From Minisyncoccota bacterium (GTDB lineage Bacteria > Patescibacteriota > Minisyncoccia > Phycocordibacterales > UBA9973), in the NCBI GenBank assembly GCA_041662205.1, contig JBAZSZ010000002.1, positions 103,266-167,265 on the forward strand: a DNA stretch of 64,000 bases, in the 5' to 3' direction. The stretch's first letter is position 1. Every line of letters begins with the position of its first letter. The translations under genes were made by a program, and so were the position numbers. Below the pieces are notes generated by a model, which saw only the letters and a list, made by a program, of their open reading frames with translations, was not told the origin of the DNA and ran no database searches. Of the stretch, positions 3,128 to 56,688 are shown in pieces.

Positions 3128-4126
3128 ATGAGACTGTTTTTTATTTTTTTATTTCTTATTTTCTCTTTACTTTTTTCTTCACAGACAGCTTTTGCAGTTT
3201 CTACAACCTCAGCTTCCTCTGATTGCAGTATTACTCTTAAATTAAAAGTAGGTTCAAAGGGTATCGAAGTAGAATGTCTTCAAAGAAAAATAGGGATTGT
3301 GGCTGATGGAAGCTTTGGACCTTTGACTAAAGCTAAAATTGTAGTTTTTCAATCAAATAATGGTTTAAAGATTGACGGAATAGTCGGTCCGCTCACACGG
3401 ACGGCTCTAAATGGTATAAAAGTAGGTAATATTTACCCAGAAGGTTGTATCTCAAATGTAGGATATAGTCCAACGACTGGCAAAAAATGTGATGGTACTG
3501 TAAAAAGTGTTGTAAATAAAGGCTTTAATCCTACTTCTATTCTTACCCCTACTCTTACTCCAAAACTTACTTCCAATAATGTAAATATGGATCAATTTAT
3601 TAAAACAGTGGTAGAAGTAAGTAGAAAATCTGGTTCCAGTGAAGCAAATCTTAAAATCATAGCGGATACTCTCAGGGAAACAATTCTAAATAGTGATGTT
3701 GATTATAATAAAAAATTTGAAGAATTGTTGACCAATGAAAGTAAATTGAGCACTAATTTAAAAACTAATATTTTTGCTTCTGTGTTTGATAAAGTTCTTA
3801 CAAAGACTTTTTCCTTTTTAGGGATTAAGCCTTCTATGGCTTTTGCTGCAACTGGTATACCGTTTGGTGGAGCTTTACTCTTTCCTTTTTTTTGTGAATA
3901 TAATGCAAGCTGGATGATAACTGTTTCACCTCTTCCCCCAACTTTTGTAACCCTTCTCTCTTATTATCCGGGAACTCAAGGATTTGCGAGTTATAATATA
4001 CCTTTTACTCGTTGGTTGCTCGGTGAATATGTAACACCTGGCGTTTGTTTAATACCAGGTGACCCTGTTATTGTTATTCCCACTACAGGTACTATTACTC
4101 CAAAGGTAGGTTCTTCTCCTATTTAG
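3128..4126 (+). CDS. Secreted protein with two putative peptidoglycan-binding (PG_binding_1-like) repeats
   Basis: Signal peptide MRLFFIFLFLIFSLLFSSQTAFA, followed by two repeats of the form GSKGIEVECLQRKIGIVADGSFGPLTKAKIVVFQSNNGLKIDGIVGPLTRTAL. Confidence 0.6.
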   Translation: MRLFFIFLFLIFSLLFSSQTAFAVSTTSASSDCSITLKLKVGSKGIEVECLQRKIGIVADGSFGPLTKAKIVVFQSNNGLKIDGIVGPLTRTALNGIKVGNIYPEGCISNVGYSPTTGKKCDGTVKSVVNKGFNPTSILTPTLTPKLTSNNVNMDQFIKTVVEVSRKSGSSEANLKIIADTLRETILNSDVDYNKKFEELLTNESKLSTNLKTNIFASVFDKVLTKTFSFLGIKPSMAFAATGIPFGGALLFPFFCEYNASWMITVSPLPPTFVTLLSYYPGTQGFASYNIPFTRWLLGEYVTPGVCLIPGDPVIVIPTTGTITPKVGSSPI

Positions 4127-9890: not shown

Positions 9891-9903
9891 TAGTTATCCA
9901 CAT
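9891..9903 (+). promoter_or_regulatory. Perfect DnaA-box-like motif TAGTTATCCACA upstream of a -35/-10 pair (LysM-M23 gene leader)
   Basis: TTATCCACA is the canonical DnaA box. The same extended 11-12-mer recurs at 12069-12078, 26966-26976, 42156-42167 and, in reverse orientation, at 37783-37794, each 25-40 nt upstream of a plausible -10 hexamer. Confidence 0.5.
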
Positions 9904-11863: not shown

Positions 11864-12132
11864 TTTATTTATTGTTTTAAAATAAAATCCTTATTTTAAA
11901 AACAAAAAAGCTGTTTCACGTTTAACATGTTTCACATGAAACATAGTAACAAATTTTTAGTAAATTTTATGTCTTTTACTATAATATCCTTATTTTATAA
12001 GATATATACAGAAAAAATGCTAATAAAAGACAGTTTCATATTGTGTCCTTTATGAACAGTACTAACATAGTTATCCACAATTTTATTAAATCTTTAATTT
12101 ATAAGGTATTATTAAGGGACATCATTTTTTTG

Positions 12133-22791: not shown

Positions 22792-22818
22792 AATTCTTTA
22801 TTTTATAAACTTTTCTTT

Positions 22819-22888
22819 GGTACGGATTTTTTGAAGCTTAAAAAATCCTGAAGTTCTCGGCTCGTCAGCCTCGAAACCCCGCGAAAAG
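22819..22888 (+). repeat. Structured intergenic element, family T2, copy 1 (downstream of pnp)
   Basis: GGTACGGATTTTTTgaagcttAAAAAATCCTGAAGTTCTCGGCTCGTCAGCCTCGAAACCCC. It shares the CTCGGCTCGTCAGCC core with T1. Confidence 0.7.
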
Positions 22889-22913
22889 TTATATAATAAA
22901 GAATTAACGCTAT

Positions 22914-26966: not shown

Positions 26967-26992
26967 TTATCCACAGTACCTTTGTTGACAAG

Positions 26993-37093: not shown

Positions 37094-37121
37094 AAAAATA
37101 CCTTATTCAGGTAAAAGTGAG

Positions 37122-37158
37122 ACAGGCAGAGCTGGGTATAAGACCCTGCTCTGCCTGT
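37122..37158. terminator. Long GC-rich hairpin (11-bp stem) between convergent genes; with T-runs on the minus-strand side it probably terminates the 37249-37602 gene
   Basis: ACAGGCAGAGC-tgggtataagaccct-GCTCTGCCTGT. A second hairpin, ccggctgttttatgccgg, lies near 37205-37225. Confidence 0.55.
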
Positions 37159-37248
37159 TGTGATACTAAACGATAAAAAAAACAAAAAACTTTTTGCTTA
37201 AGCCGGCTGTTTTATGCCGGATCTCTTCCTTTTGTTTCCCTTAAGATC

Positions 37249-37602
37249 TTAAGCGGATGTTACCTGTCGGAGTCCTGTTCCATCGTCGCTTGTTTTCCTT
37301 ATTGCCGCTACAGGCTGTAATCCCTTGCCGTCATCCTGGCCCATTGCCTTTGTAGTTGCGATAGTCCAGCCGTCTTCTTTTGCGAGGTCCTGCTGCCCTG
37401 TTGCCTTCATAAGAATACCCTGATCCACGGTAACGGCGTCGGTGATAGTTGCGCCTTCTTCTTTTGCGAGGTCCTGCTGCCCTGTTGCCTTCATAAGAAT
37501 ACCCTGATCCACGGTAACGGCGTCGGTGGCTGCGAACGCGATAGCGGCGCACAGTACTGTAAAACAACAGCATAGCACTACCAATAAAAGTTTCTTCTTC
37601 AT
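37249..37602 (-). CDS. Small secreted protein with two 28-aa tandem repeats and atypically high GC
   Basis: Signal peptide MKKKLLLVVLCCCFTVLCAAIAFA, a strong AGGAGGG Shine-Dalgarno sequence, repeats (A)TDAVTVDQGILMKATGQQDLAKE(E/D)G, and local GC of about 55-59% against about 35% nearby. Confidence 0.6.
   Translation of the reverse strand: MKKKLLLVVLCCCFTVLCAAIAFAATDAVTVDQGILMKATGQQDLAKEEGATITDAVTVDQGILMKATGQQDLAKEDGWTIATTKAMGQDDGKGLQPVAAIRKTSDDGTGLRQVTSA
37374..37541. repeat. 84-bp tandem direct repeat x2 inside the 37249-37602 gene
   Basis: cttcttttgcgaggtcctgctgccctgttgccttcataagaataccctgatccacggtaacggcgtcggtg occurs twice with a period of 84 bp. Confidence 0.8.
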
Positions 37603-37816
37603 ATTTTCCCTCCTAACAGAAAATTTATGAAAAAAATCTTACTCTAAATTTTATCAACAAGCTTCCTAACTTGTCGATACGGGTCTCGAGCGTCCCCGTT
37701 GTTTTTTTATTGTTTCAACGTACCTCCTTCAATTAGATACTATCAAATAACGATTTTTCGTCAATTTAGAAAAAGCGTGATTGTGGATAACTCGCCAGAG
37801 GCGAGCAAGTTCTTTT

Positions 37817-39212: not shown

Positions 39213-40079
39213 TTATTGACTGTCGCTTCCTGAATTATTAGAATTATCTAATTTCAATTTATCTAATTCTATTTTTACTTCGTCTTTTAAAGATTTAACT
39301 GCATCTCTAAGTGCTTGATGAGCATCTTTAATAAGATTTTGAGTATCTTGTGCAAGAGTTACTAATTTAGCTTTTTCTGTTGCAGAAAGTTTATTAACTG
39401 AGGTTGCTAGAATTGTGTTTATTTCTGTAATTTTTACATTAGCAGTATTTAGTTTTGTTTCAGCTGTTGTTACAAAAGCTTTAGCGTTCGTAACATTTAC
39501 TCCCTTCAATGCTAGTTTGGCTATTTGATTGTTAATTCTATCTTTTAAATTATTCATTCTTGCAACTGCCGCATCAAATCTCTGTAATGCATTTTCTCTT
39601 CCAGAAATTCTTGTCTCGCCATCTAATTTTTTGGCTAAATTTTTTTCTCCTTTAAGGATAGATTTTAAATCCTCTAGTTTATTTTTTGCTACTTCACGTA
39701 GTGCCCTGTTTGCATCATCACCACTATCAGATGAATTGTCGATACGCACTCCAGCTGCATTAAAATCTCCTCTACCTTGGTCTGGGGTCCCATCATCATC
39801 ACCAGGAGTATTGTCTATGCGTACTCCAGCTGCATTAAAATCTCCTCTACCTTGGTCTGGGGTCCCATCATCACCAGGAGTATTATCTACACGTACTCCG
39901 GCAGCGTTGAAATCACCAGAACCTTGGTCAGGAGTTCCATCATCACTACCACCTCCACTACTACTAACGCCACTGGAAGAATTACCAGAACTTCCATCTT
40001 TTGCTTGAGAGTTATTTGCATTCATCATAAACACTAGCATTAAAACAATCACAAACAAACCTATATTTTTTTTCATCAT
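39213..40079 (-). CDS. Secreted protein with three tandem 22-23-aa RGD-containing repeats and a C-terminal coiled coil
   Basis: Signal peptide MMKKNIGLFVIVLMLVFMMNANNSQA. Repeats GDDGTPDQG(R/S)GDFNAAGVR(I/V)DNTP x3. The DNA repeat period is 66-69 bp over about 39740-39950. Confidence 0.6.
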   Translation of the reverse strand: MMKKNIGLFVIVLMLVFMMNANNSQAKDGSSGNSSSGVSSSGGGSDDGTPDQGSGDFNAAGVRVDNTPGDDGTPDQGRGDFNAAGVRIDNTPGDDDGTPDQGRGDFNAAGVRIDNSSDSGDDANRALREVAKNKLEDLKSILKGEKNLAKKLDGETRISGRENALQRFDAAVARMNNLKDRINNQIAKLALKGVNVTNAKAFVTTAETKLNTANVKITEINTILATSVNKLSATEKAKLVTLAQDTQNLIKDAHQALRDAVKSLKDEVKIELDKLKLDNSNNSGSDSQ

Positions 40080-42110: not shown

Positions 42111-42214
42111 ACCAGAAAATAGTACCATAAGAGTGATTTTTATGCAAACACAATAGAGTTATCCACACCTCTGATTCACCCTTTTTCTTTTTTGTTCTAT
42201 ACTTATCTTAACTT

Positions 42215-55082: not shown

Positions 55083-56591
55083 ATGCGAGATAGAATTTTT
55101 TATACAATTTGTTTTGGTTTTTTATTTGGAGTGCTGACGCGCTCTTTTATTTTGGTAGATTTATATTTGGTTATTTTGTTTAGTGTGATTGCTGGTGCAT
55201 TGTTTATATTTTTTACATTAGTCTCAAAAAGTGATTGGACCTGTCTGCGCAGGCAGGGAATTATAGTTTCTATTTTTATTTTGGCTTTTAGTTTAGGTGT
55301 TTACAGATTTAATATGGTGGATGTGCCGAATTCTCTTGTTTTTGAAAATCAAGTGGGACAAGAAGTAACTTTTTCTGGAGAAATTACAGACGAGCCTAGT
55401 ATAAAAGAGAATAACCAGCAATTGATAGTAAAAATAAAAAAAGAAAAAGATAAAACACATATTTTATTAACCACTAATTTAGATATAGATTATAAATATG
55501 GAGATGAGATAAATTTTTTTGGCGAATTAGAAAAGCCGGGAAATTTTATTACTGATCAGGGAAAAGAATTTGACTATATAAATTATTTACGGAAAGATGG
55601 GATTTTGTATGTGATGAGTTATCCAACAATTTCCATTGTTTCGCGCGGGAATGGTAACTCAATTCAAAGCATCTTATTTTCTATTAAAGATAAGTTTTTG
55701 GAGAAAATAAATTTTGCTATTAATGCCCCTGAGAATCTTCTTATGGGCGGGCTTATTTTGGGCGAAAAATCTTCTTTTAGCCAGGAGCTGAGACAGAATT
55801 TTGTGGATACTGGTACGATACACATCGTTGCTCTTTCTGGATACAATGTGACAATTGTGGCTGAATGGATTATGAAATTATTCTCTTATGTAAATTTTGG
55901 CTTGCCTGCACAGGCAGGTATTGGAATGGGAATATTAACAATAATTTTATTCATTATAATGACTGGTGGAATTTCGACCGCTATTCGGGCGGGGATAATG
56001 GCGACTTTGGCATTAGTGGCCCGCGCGACTGGGCGCAACTATGATGTCGCGCGAGCTTTATTATTGGCTGGGTTGTTTATGATAATTCTTAATCCTTTTC
56101 TTCTTGTTTTTGATGCTTCTTTTCAACTTTCTTTTTTGGCGACAGCCGCTGTGATATTTATTGCTCCTAGAATTGAAAAATATTTTCTATGGGTACCGAA
56201 AACTTTTGAGTTACGAGATATAGTATCAGTCACTTGCGCTGCTTATATTTTTGTTTTTCCTTTTATTCTTTATAAAATGGGTAATTTTTCACTCGTAGCC
56301 TTACCAGCTAATATTTTAATTTTGCCCTTTATTCCTCTTACGATGATGTTTGGGTTTGTTACTGGTTTTCTTGGACTTGTTTATTATGTATTGGCAGTGC
56401 CTGTGGGTTATCTTTCTTATTTATTTTTACATTATGAGCTCGGAGTAATAAGTTTTTTTGCTGATCTACCTTTTGCGTCTTTTACTTTTCCAGATTTTCC
56501 ACTTTTGCTAACAGTTTTAATATACATCTATTTTATTTATAAACTTTTTGGCAGAAATATAATAAGTTTTTTTAGAGAAAATCAAGAATAA
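55083..56591 (+). CDS. comEC: ComEC/Rec2-family competence channel protein (DUF4131 + Competence domain only; no MBL domain)
   Basis: Polytopic membrane protein with the Competence-domain motif GTIHIVALSGYNVTIVA. Confidence 0.7.
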   Translation: MRDRIFYTICFGFLFGVLTRSFILVDLYLVILFSVIAGALFIFFTLVSKSDWTCLRRQGIIVSIFILAFSLGVYRFNMVDVPNSLVFENQVGQEVTFSGEITDEPSIKENNQQLIVKIKKEKDKTHILLTTNLDIDYKYGDEINFFGELEKPGNFITDQGKEFDYINYLRKDGILYVMSYPTISIVSRGNGNSIQSILFSIKDKFLEKINFAINAPENLLMGGLILGEKSSFSQELRQNFVDTGTIHIVALSGYNVTIVAEWIMKLFSYVNFGLPAQAGIGMGILTIILFIIMTGGISTAIRAGIMATLALVARATGRNYDVARALLLAGLFMIILNPFLLVFDASFQLSFLATAAVIFIAPRIEKYFLWVPKTFELRDIVSVTCAAYIFVFPFILYKMGNFSLVALPANILILPFIPLTMMFGFVTGFLGLVYYVLAVPVGYLSYLFLHYELGVISFFADLPFASFTFPDFPLLLTVLIYIYFIYKLFGRNIISFFRENQE

Positions 56592-56600
56592 TGTTTTTAA

Positions 56601-56662
56601 GGGGTTTCGAGGCTGTCGAGCCGAGAATTTCAGGATTTTTCAAGCTTCGAAAAATTTGTACC
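56601..56662 (-). repeat. Family T2, copy 2 (reverse orientation) between the convergent comEC and sodA genes
   Basis: The reverse complement reads GGTACAAATTTTTCGAAGCTTGAAAAATCCTGAAATTCTCGGCTCGACAGCCTCGAAACCCC. Confidence 0.7.
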
Positions 56663-56688
56663 GGCAAAAATATTACTCTTGATTTTCT

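Follow-up and report, generated by a model that had tools for sequence, protein, structure and literature searches.

A GC-rich orphan gene with conserved regulatory surroundings and a freely diverging, probably secreted product in a small lineage of Candidatus Nomurabacteria

At positions 37249-37602, minus strand, of the 64,000-nucleotide stretch analysed here (contig JBAZSZ010000002.1 of the Minisyncoccota bacterium assembly GCA_041662205.1, positions 103,266 to 167,265, forward strand; hereafter the window) lies a small gene whose guanine-plus-cytosine (GC) content sets it apart from every other gene nearby. We consider it, with a probability of roughly 70%, to be a genuine single-copy orphan gene, restricted to a small lineage of Candidatus Nomurabacteria/Paceibacterota in the candidate phyla radiation (CPR), encoding a secreted, disordered protein whose sequence drifts at a near-neutral rate. 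It offers a clean example of an orphan signal-peptide gene in which the regulatory DNA is more conserved than the coding sequence, and in which genome-atypical codons are found in three species. Here, we set out the comparative evidence for this reading, then weigh competing accounts of how the gene came by its composition and variability, before turning to its possible role and to neighbouring loci.

The gene lies between tig, encoding trigger factor, and a convergent amidohydrolase gene; tig itself retrieves only Nomurabacteria, Paceibacterota and other Patescibacteria metagenome-assembled genomes (MAGs). Alleles occupy the same tig/amidohydrolase junction in two sister species, whose neighbouring proteins are 88-94% identical to those of the window. 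The closest relative with the same synteny, L003 (JBAZSF010000002.1; trigger factor 88-90% identical, amidohydrolase 94%), has 702 bp between tig and the amidohydrolase gene, compared with 723 bp in the window, and within this gap an open reading frame (ORF) of 118 amino acids with a different sequence, a signal peptide, short repeats of its own, a GC content of 54.6% and a third-codon-position GC (GC3) of 0.61. Searching JGI metagenomes for the 28-nt promoter sequence described below returned two contigs, L082, from the same species as L003, and L083, from a third species that recurs as ENA contig L084 and whose allele encodes about 135 amino acids with a GC content of 46% and a GC3 of 0.50. 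The ORF is identical between assemblies of the same species (L003 and L082; L083 and L084), and among 80 related loci, for each of which the stretch around tig was fetched, the conserved flank motifs occur only in the three sister species and not in the other 77.

Conservation is unevenly distributed across this junction. When aligned by blastn, the window and L003 are collinear over 13 kb at 79-86% identity, and the sole piece that fails to align, 37260-37628, is the ORF. Its flanks are 82% (5') and 89% (3') identical between the two, compared with 50-64% at the four-fold degenerate sites of the tig, amidohydrolase and argininosuccinate lyase genes; being more conserved than such sites, the flanks are under purifying selection. 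Global alignment of the mature regions, by contrast, gives 53-58% identity (z = 1.2-3.1 relative to shuffled sequences), and the divergence of the coding body is about that of neutral sites. What the three alleles have in common is the same reading frame opening at a conserved ATG, kept though the body is unalignable, together with the Shine-Dalgarno sequence, the signal peptide, an acidic Ala/Thr-rich composition (isoelectric point of the mature protein 4.4-5.3) and an excess of GC3. The window and L083 mature proteins do score above chance in a Smith-Waterman comparison (z = 7.8), and the motif D[QE]G[IV]LMK occurs twice in each, which argues for a common two-repeat ancestor. Selection seems to preserve bulk properties and not the sequence itself: an open frame, a signal for export, an acidic composition of low complexity and possibly codons poor in U and rich in GC; constraint of this kind is usual for disordered extracellular proteins.

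The same distribution bears on the idea that the GC-rich stretch is a structured non-coding RNA in which the ORF is incidental. In AT-rich genomes, islands of high GC often turn out to be RNA genes, which gives the idea its initial appeal, but here the GC-rich core is the least conserved part of the locus, the opposite of the pattern expected of an RNA gene, while the frame, ATG, Shine-Dalgarno sequence and signal peptide are all conserved. Rfam contains no family that matches at its gathering threshold, and at a permissive E of up to 10 only far-sub-threshold matches in the flanks appear; ARAGORN finds only four distant tRNA genes and no transfer-messenger RNA, and the mRNA folds no more stably than shuffled controls (z = -1.4 and +0.46). 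We regard a non-coding origin as barely credible.

The 117-residue product consists of a signal peptide, two 28-residue repeats and a unique 36-residue tail, encoded as follows.

37249-37602, minus strand: coding sequence, 117 amino acids, GC 51.4%, GC3 0.51.
37531-37602, minus strand: signal peptide, amino acids 1-24 (MKKK, hydrophobic core, AFA-A), with a signal peptidase I type site by inspection; here and below the hyphen marks the predicted cleavage.
37444-37527, minus strand: repeat unit 1, 84 bp, 28 amino acids, TDAVTVDQGILMKATGQQDLAKEEGATI, from the Tandem Repeats Finder (TRF) call and in-frame reading.
37360-37443, minus strand: repeat unit 2, 84 bp, 28 amino acids, TDAVTVDQGILMKATGQQDLAKEDGWTI, with 4 nt different from unit 1.
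37252-37359, minus strand: unique C-terminal 36 amino acids, ATTKAMGQDDGKGLQPVAAIRKTSDDGTGLRQVTSA, modelled by AlphaFold2 (AF2) as a low-confidence beta meander.

The N-terminus, which reads MKKKLLLVVLCCCFTVLCAAIAFA-ATDA, has the features of a Sec type I signal peptide: MKKK supplies the positive charge, LLLVVLCCCFTVLCAAI the hydrophobic core, for which 10-20 residues are expected, and AFA-A the small residues at -3 and -1. The same layout is evident in the L003 (AVA-S) and L083 (VFA-T) alleles, and in each case the call is made by inspection of the sequence, combined for the window allele with a helix that AF2 places over residues 3-27. A lipobox ([LVI][ASTVI][GAS]C) was not found at the end of the signal peptide in any of the three: the window allele has VVLC and TVLC, with Leu at -1, L083 has LFLC, and the LFGC of L003 has its Cys at position 12 with hydrophobic sequence continuing after it. 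Both repeat units conform to the form TDAVTVDQGILMKATGQQDLAKE[E/D]G[A/W]TI, and TRF calls the array at 37369-37528 as 1.9 copies with 98% matches. The mature protein of 93 residues has an isoelectric point of 4.4, is rich in Ala, Thr, Asp and Gly, contains no cysteine and is probably mostly disordered, to judge from a single-sequence AF2 model with a mean pLDDT of 51 and values of 34-39 across the repeats; a Foldseek search of the PDB with this model gave no match better than E = 3.7.

The conserved 5' flank contains a AGTTATCCACA box, a 36-nt block invariant across the three species that includes a promoter-like TTGACG-16-TAGTAT, and the hairpin AACGGGRACRCTCGARACCCGT. The elements on both sides of the gene are listed below.

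37608-37614, minus strand: Shine-Dalgarno sequence AGGAGGG, with a 5-nt spacer to the ATG; both other alleles have AGGAGG.
37737-37764, minus strand: promoter-like site P1, TTGACG, 16 nt, TAGTAT; 28 nt identical in three species and lying within the 36-nt block.
37782-37792, minus strand: AGTTATCCACA box, containing a DnaA-box consensus, 17 nt upstream of the P1 -35 hexamer and kept in three species.
9894-9902, 12071-12079, 26967-26975 and 42159-42167, plus strand, and 37782-37790, minus strand: copies of AGTTATCCACA in the window.
37648-37677, minus strand: promoter-like site P2, TCGACA, 18 nt, TG-n-TAAAAT, kept in two of three species.
37679-37700, minus strand: leader hairpin AACGGGGACGCTCGAGACCCGT, conserved.
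37175-37220, minus strand: 3' hairpin CCGGC-ATAAAACA-GCCGG (hairpin 37203-37220) followed by a T-rich run, present in L003 and absent from L083.
37121-37158, no strand assigned: long GC-rich hairpin separating the small gene from the convergent amidohydrolase gene, in all three species.
37791-37805, no strand assigned: hairpin CTCGCC-nnn-GGCGAG, directly past the tig stop codon and abutting the TTATCCACA box.

The 9-mer TTATCCACA, which lies inside AGTTATCCACA, is found exactly at 37782-37790 on the minus strand, 17 nt upstream of the -35 hexamer TTGACG. The full 11-mer occurs 5 times in the window, where 0.53 occurrences would be expected, all of them intergenic, and three of the copies sit 8-20 nt upstream of a TTGAC -35-like box. 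Across 926 kb of related Nomurabacteria loci the 9-mer is found 54 times, compared with about 11 expected, an excess of about five-fold; TTATCCACA looks like a clade-wide promoter-associated operator. Downstream of P1, P2 overlaps a leader hairpin at 37653-37678. A consensus fold of the leader from the three sequences gave one compensatory pair only, and we claim no regulatory structure for it. At the other end of the gene, the 37175-37220 hairpin with its T-rich run is a probable terminator for the gene, and the long hairpin at 37121-37158 would probably terminate transcription in both directions. An initial description of the gene made by a model from the letters of the window, here called the sequence-only reading, had already recognized much of this anatomy: the small repeat protein with its signal peptide, the AGGAGGG and the promoter box are all borne out. 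Its 84-bp repeats are real as well, though placed about 13 nt out of register, and its two flanking terminators are indeed hairpins on both sides, only some of which have the terminator consensus.

Also in the conserved leader is a candidate mini-ORF at 37700-37725 (minus strand), with equivalents in L003 and L083, laid out as AGGAGG, 4-9 nt, TTG, 2-4 codons and TAA (encoding MKQ, MNH and MKQNK) and placed directly before the conserved hairpin. Downstream of it lies a poly-U tract that the consensus fold allows to pair with the main Shine-Dalgarno sequence, a pairing that has no real covariation support in these three sequences.

Within the window species, the only variation seen is in repeat number. 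A 579-bp ENA contig (L001, sample ERZ27249449) encodes an 89-residue allele (P0001) and is 100% identical to the window over its 579 bp save for exactly one missing 84-bp unit, so the locus behaves as a variable number tandem repeat, with two units in the window and one in L001. Because the differences between the two units fall near their 3' ends, and because the contig name (k141_...) suggests assembly with 141-mers, a simple collapse of two-copy reads seems unlikely. The difference is probably a real length polymorphism, the repeat number varying between one and two copies, and the in-frame duplication itself is likely to be very recent.

A conserved 5' region and signal peptide in front of a hypervariable, repeat-bearing body of variable copy number invites comparison with dedicated systems for generating diversity, whether a target of a diversity-generating retroelement (DGR), elements that are common in CPR bacteria, or a switching locus like those of the Mycoplasma variable surface lipoproteins Vlp, Vsa and Vsp. 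With the latter the gene has in common a reduced-genome, host-dependent bacterium, the conserved 5' region and signal peptide, and a divergent mature region built of in-frame tandem repeats in variable copy number; unlike them, it has no correctly placed lipobox cysteine, is one gene and not a multigene family (no paralogues were found in the window or in the databases), and shows neither a phase-variable promoter tract nor an invertible element. Like the DGR variable proteins of CPR bacteria, it comes from that phylum-level group and combines hypervariability with a signal peptide; it departs from them in that no template repeat was found in the 64-kb window, where blastn detects only the internal 84-bp repeat, in that the ORF does not differ between same-species assemblies of the sister species, and in that variation extends over the whole mature protein and not only a C-terminal variable region. 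Since its between-species divergence is in addition no greater than that of neutral sites, we judge a targeted hypervariation cassette of either type to be very improbable. The gene belongs instead to a familiar kind, the fast-evolving repeat-containing exported proteins of reduced-genome bacteria, with the twist that a GC-rich codon usage is common to alleles otherwise almost devoid of common sequence.

This composition is extreme for the window. The gene has a GC content of 51.4%, reaching 55.4% in the repeat stretch, compared with 35.5% for the window as a whole, and is the highest-GC segment among 6365 windows of 354 nt in the 64 kb. Its GC3 of 0.508 lies far outside the range of 0.17-0.36 found in the other 61 ORFs of at least 90 amino acids (GC 0.29-0.41). 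Given its own amino acids and the codon usage of the window, the expected GC3 is 0.287 +/- 0.039 (z = 5.6), and none of 5000 simulations gave a value as high. With native codons the same amino acids would give a GC content of 0.438, so that amino-acid content and codon choice each account for about half of the GC excess. The latter is visible as a halving of third-position T (0.19 compared with 0.38 in the background) and as marked preferences for CAG (92% of Gln codons compared with 21%), GAC (67% of Asp codons compared with 22%) and AAG. In all three alleles, window, L003 and L083, GC3 is raised (0.51, 0.61 and 0.50, respectively, compared with 0.29-0.32 expected; z = 5.6-7.4) and third-position T falls to about 0.18-0.19 from 0.38, with C and G both increased. 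GC-richness common to all alleles must be older than the split of the three species.

The sequence-only reading had singled out the gene as unlike every other in GC and codon usage, which these measurements confirm, although its local figure of 55-59% GC was too high, and it had offered two causes, neither of which is supported. A bias driven by the repeat is at odds with the one-copy form, in which removal of one unit leaves the third-position composition unchanged. Recent horizontal acquisition by this genome, or its technical counterpart, a chimeric assembly, would account for a GC and codon outlier, but two sister species have GC-rich alleles at the identical position, preceded by the same conserved promoter and leader and set between conserved flanks; independent ENA, JGI and GenBank MAG assemblies reproduce the junctions with those flanks; and the promoter 11-mer recurs at four other intergenic sites in the window. 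In having outlying GC and codon usage and homologues in a very narrow clade only, the gene does resemble the orphan genes of atypical composition usually read as horizontally acquired islets; it is unlike them in its conserved regulatory surroundings with a genome-recurrent motif, in its presence in three species at one site, and in the absence of a donor and of an adjoining mobility gene (integrase or transposase) in the window. We consider a recent arrival or a misjoin very unlikely; atypical GC by itself does not mean recent transfer. Nor is the anomaly a general property of exported proteins here, as that reading had allowed, since the window genes with signal-peptide-like N-termini, including a repeat protein at 39213-40079, have a GC content of 0.34-0.41 and a GC3 of only 0.17-0.25.

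There remain two accounts of the GC excess, either of which may hold: it may be the decaying trace of an old import or it may be actively maintained. In the first, which we hold to be a real possibility, if one somewhat short of even odds, and which is compatible with the functional explanation we prefer, the common ancestor of the three species acquired the body of the gene from a donor richer in GC; this body came to lie behind a native promoter and has since been partly ameliorated. The atypical codon usage fits such a history, as do the GC-rich genes found at the same post-tig junction in related Nomurabacteria, one of which, L032, also has a sub-threshold transposase-like ORF there. A rough F81-type estimate, from four-fold-site distances of about 0.25-0.45 substitutions per site per lineage, has 53-69% of the GC3 excess surviving since the split, so that an ancestral GC3 of about 0.65-0.8 would suffice. 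Against this, the GC-rich zone is confined to the coding sequence, between conserved AT-rich flanks carrying a genome-recurrent motif, and an import of coding sequence only is awkward to envisage.

An import should also have a source, and extensive searches returned none. Pfam scans covered the ORFs around the locus, and the protein sets comprised 5.8 billion proteins (word-indexed) and 1.84 billion cluster representatives (searched with HMMER). Pfam, NCBIfam and PHROGs gave nothing above threshold for any of the three alleles; the 5.8 billion proteins, queried with the window allele, the L083 allele and a three-allele profile, returned the three alleles only; and a full HMMER search of the 1.84 billion representatives added five matches to ankyrin, Tudor/KH, OmpA and PKD repeat proteins, which we judge to be repeat-inflated and unrelated. 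No donor homologue is therefore present in either protein set, and searches of plasmid, phage and viral-contig collections gave no match.

The one lead is a faint resemblance to trimeric autotransporter adhesins, a family of diderm bacteria, which would suit an imported origin. The segment TDAVTVDQ matches Pfam PF05662 (YadA_stalk) with E = 0.072 and 13.9 bits, compared with a cut-off of 28.4, over 9 residues only, and DQGILMKATGQQDLAKEDGWTIATTKAMGQDD aligns with passenger fragments of Hsf (PDB 5lnl, E = 0.09) and Hia (PDB 3emi, E = 0.6), both below threshold. The pattern held in common with Hia and Hsf is D.G.L..A..D....K.GW.I.TT.A.GQ.D, and the resemblance spans 37360-37540 (minus strand), residues 25-91. 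Pair shuffles against the Hsf and Hia fragments gave z = 3.6-4.1 for the window allele and no signal for the other two. With every score sub-threshold, no YadA_anchor domain, a length of only 117 amino acids and dissimilar sister alleles, we do not assign the protein to this family and treat the short motif resemblances as a lead only; to our knowledge, CPR cells lack an outer membrane.

The second account, that GC-rich and U-poor codons are maintained, is in our view rather unlikely, though worth stating. Here the codons would stabilise a very highly expressed transcript or aid its translation, or would result from GC-biased gene conversion at a recombining repeat. The same skew in three alleles with almost no common nucleotide sequence is what maintenance would predict, the codons of the signal peptide are skewed too, and the near-identical repeats and their variable copy number show that recombination is ongoing. 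On the other hand, the mRNA is no more structured than its shuffled controls, as seen above, and the expected high expressers of this genome (tig, nusA and the pilin-like genes) have a GC3 of only 0.21-0.30.

Several points weigh against the gene being, as we prefer, a secreted protein under bulk selection that otherwise drifts. One is that a high GC3 in a near-neutrally evolving sequence of an AT-biased genome is left unexplained by the model, and needs either an old GC-rich origin or some other selective or mutational bias. The mature part of the L003 protein is not significantly similar to either other allele (z = 1.1 and -1.1), and replacement of the allele at this locus in the L003 species is conceivable. 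Expression, export and localisation are all read from the anatomy of the gene, the disorder predicted by AF2 from one sequence is weak evidence, and the one-copy allele comes from a 579-bp contig, for which an assembler artefact is nonetheless unlikely.

If the anatomy is taken at face value, transcription would begin at P1 (37764-37737), possibly modulated via the upstream AGTTATCCACA box, and would give a leader of about 125 nt containing P2 (37677-37648). Translation would start efficiently at the strong Shine-Dalgarno sequence, the product would be exported by the Sec pathway with predicted cleavage after AFA, and an acidic low-complexity protein would then be released outside the cell or held on its surface; transcription would end at the 37203-37220 hairpin and T-run, backed by the long hairpin at 37121-37158. 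Such a protein would work outside the cell or at its surface, in contact with a host cell or the environment. CPR/Patescibacteria are believed to rely on other cells, yet only a few of the factors they secrete or display are known. A bolder version of this scheme, which we think doubtful, is that the AGTTATCCACA-box promoter, the leader, the possible mini-ORF and the poly-U tract that may pair with the Shine-Dalgarno sequence form a conserved expression platform with which a small clade of Nomurabacteria drives an abundant, freely evolving secreted coat or effector, selected only for its bulk properties and its U-poor, GC-rich codons; if true, it would place a composition-selected, sequence-unconstrained protein at the interface between CPR cells and their host or environment. 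Were the gene highly expressed, it could be a species-specific surface marker or host-interface factor and a test case for what keeps one gene GC-rich when the reduced genome around it is AT-rich. As matters stand, it is a modest curiosity.

Across Nomurabacteria, the gene content 3' of tig varies, and in many genomes clpP is found there. In L083, the stretch that separates tig from the small gene's promoter contains two extra pieces, a 51-bp duplicate of the tig 3' end (L083:3914-3964) and an AT-rich ORF of 78 amino acids (L083:3965-4201), which together look like a target-duplicating insertion. Elsewhere, the GC-rich ORFs that follow tig include one for an SDR protein with a GC3 of 0.73 (L033) and one for a lipoprotein-like product with a GC3 of 0.735 (L017), and L032 and L052 carry two homologous GC-rich ORFs of 118-125 amino acids. 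L032 also has a transposase-like ORF (HTH_38 and rve, both below Pfam cut-offs) after tig, and another genome has a pilin-like gene. The variable-junction loci are as follows.

L017:7901-8299: GC-rich lipoprotein-like ORF.
L033:7203-7919: GC-rich SDR ORF.
L028:7163-8581: post-tig variable-junction locus.
L032:7232-7588 and L032:7809-8756: post-tig variable-junction loci.
L052:4088-4465: post-tig variable-junction locus.
L074:6337-6864: post-tig variable-junction locus.

Two further features of the window were recorded in passing. The repeat protein already mentioned, at 39213-40079 (minus strand), is a signal-peptide-like protein of 288 amino acids with 72-75-bp repeats encoding GTPDQGRGDFNAAGVRIDNTPGDD, a GC3 of 0.17 and genome-normal codon usage; its gene is retained upstream of tig, along with that for a 75-residue membrane protein, in most relatives. 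A conserved intergenic repeat of about 75 nt, GGTACGGATTTTTTGAAGCTTAAAAAATCCTGAAGTTCTCGGCTCGACAGCCTCGAAACCCC, occurs in the window at 22805-22892 (plus strand) and 56584-56671 (minus strand) and in L083 at 3812-3898. Its copies are 86-93% identical, including across species, it contains two hairpins and has no match in Rfam, and it may be an element like the repetitive extragenic palindromes (REP), a terminator element or a small RNA.

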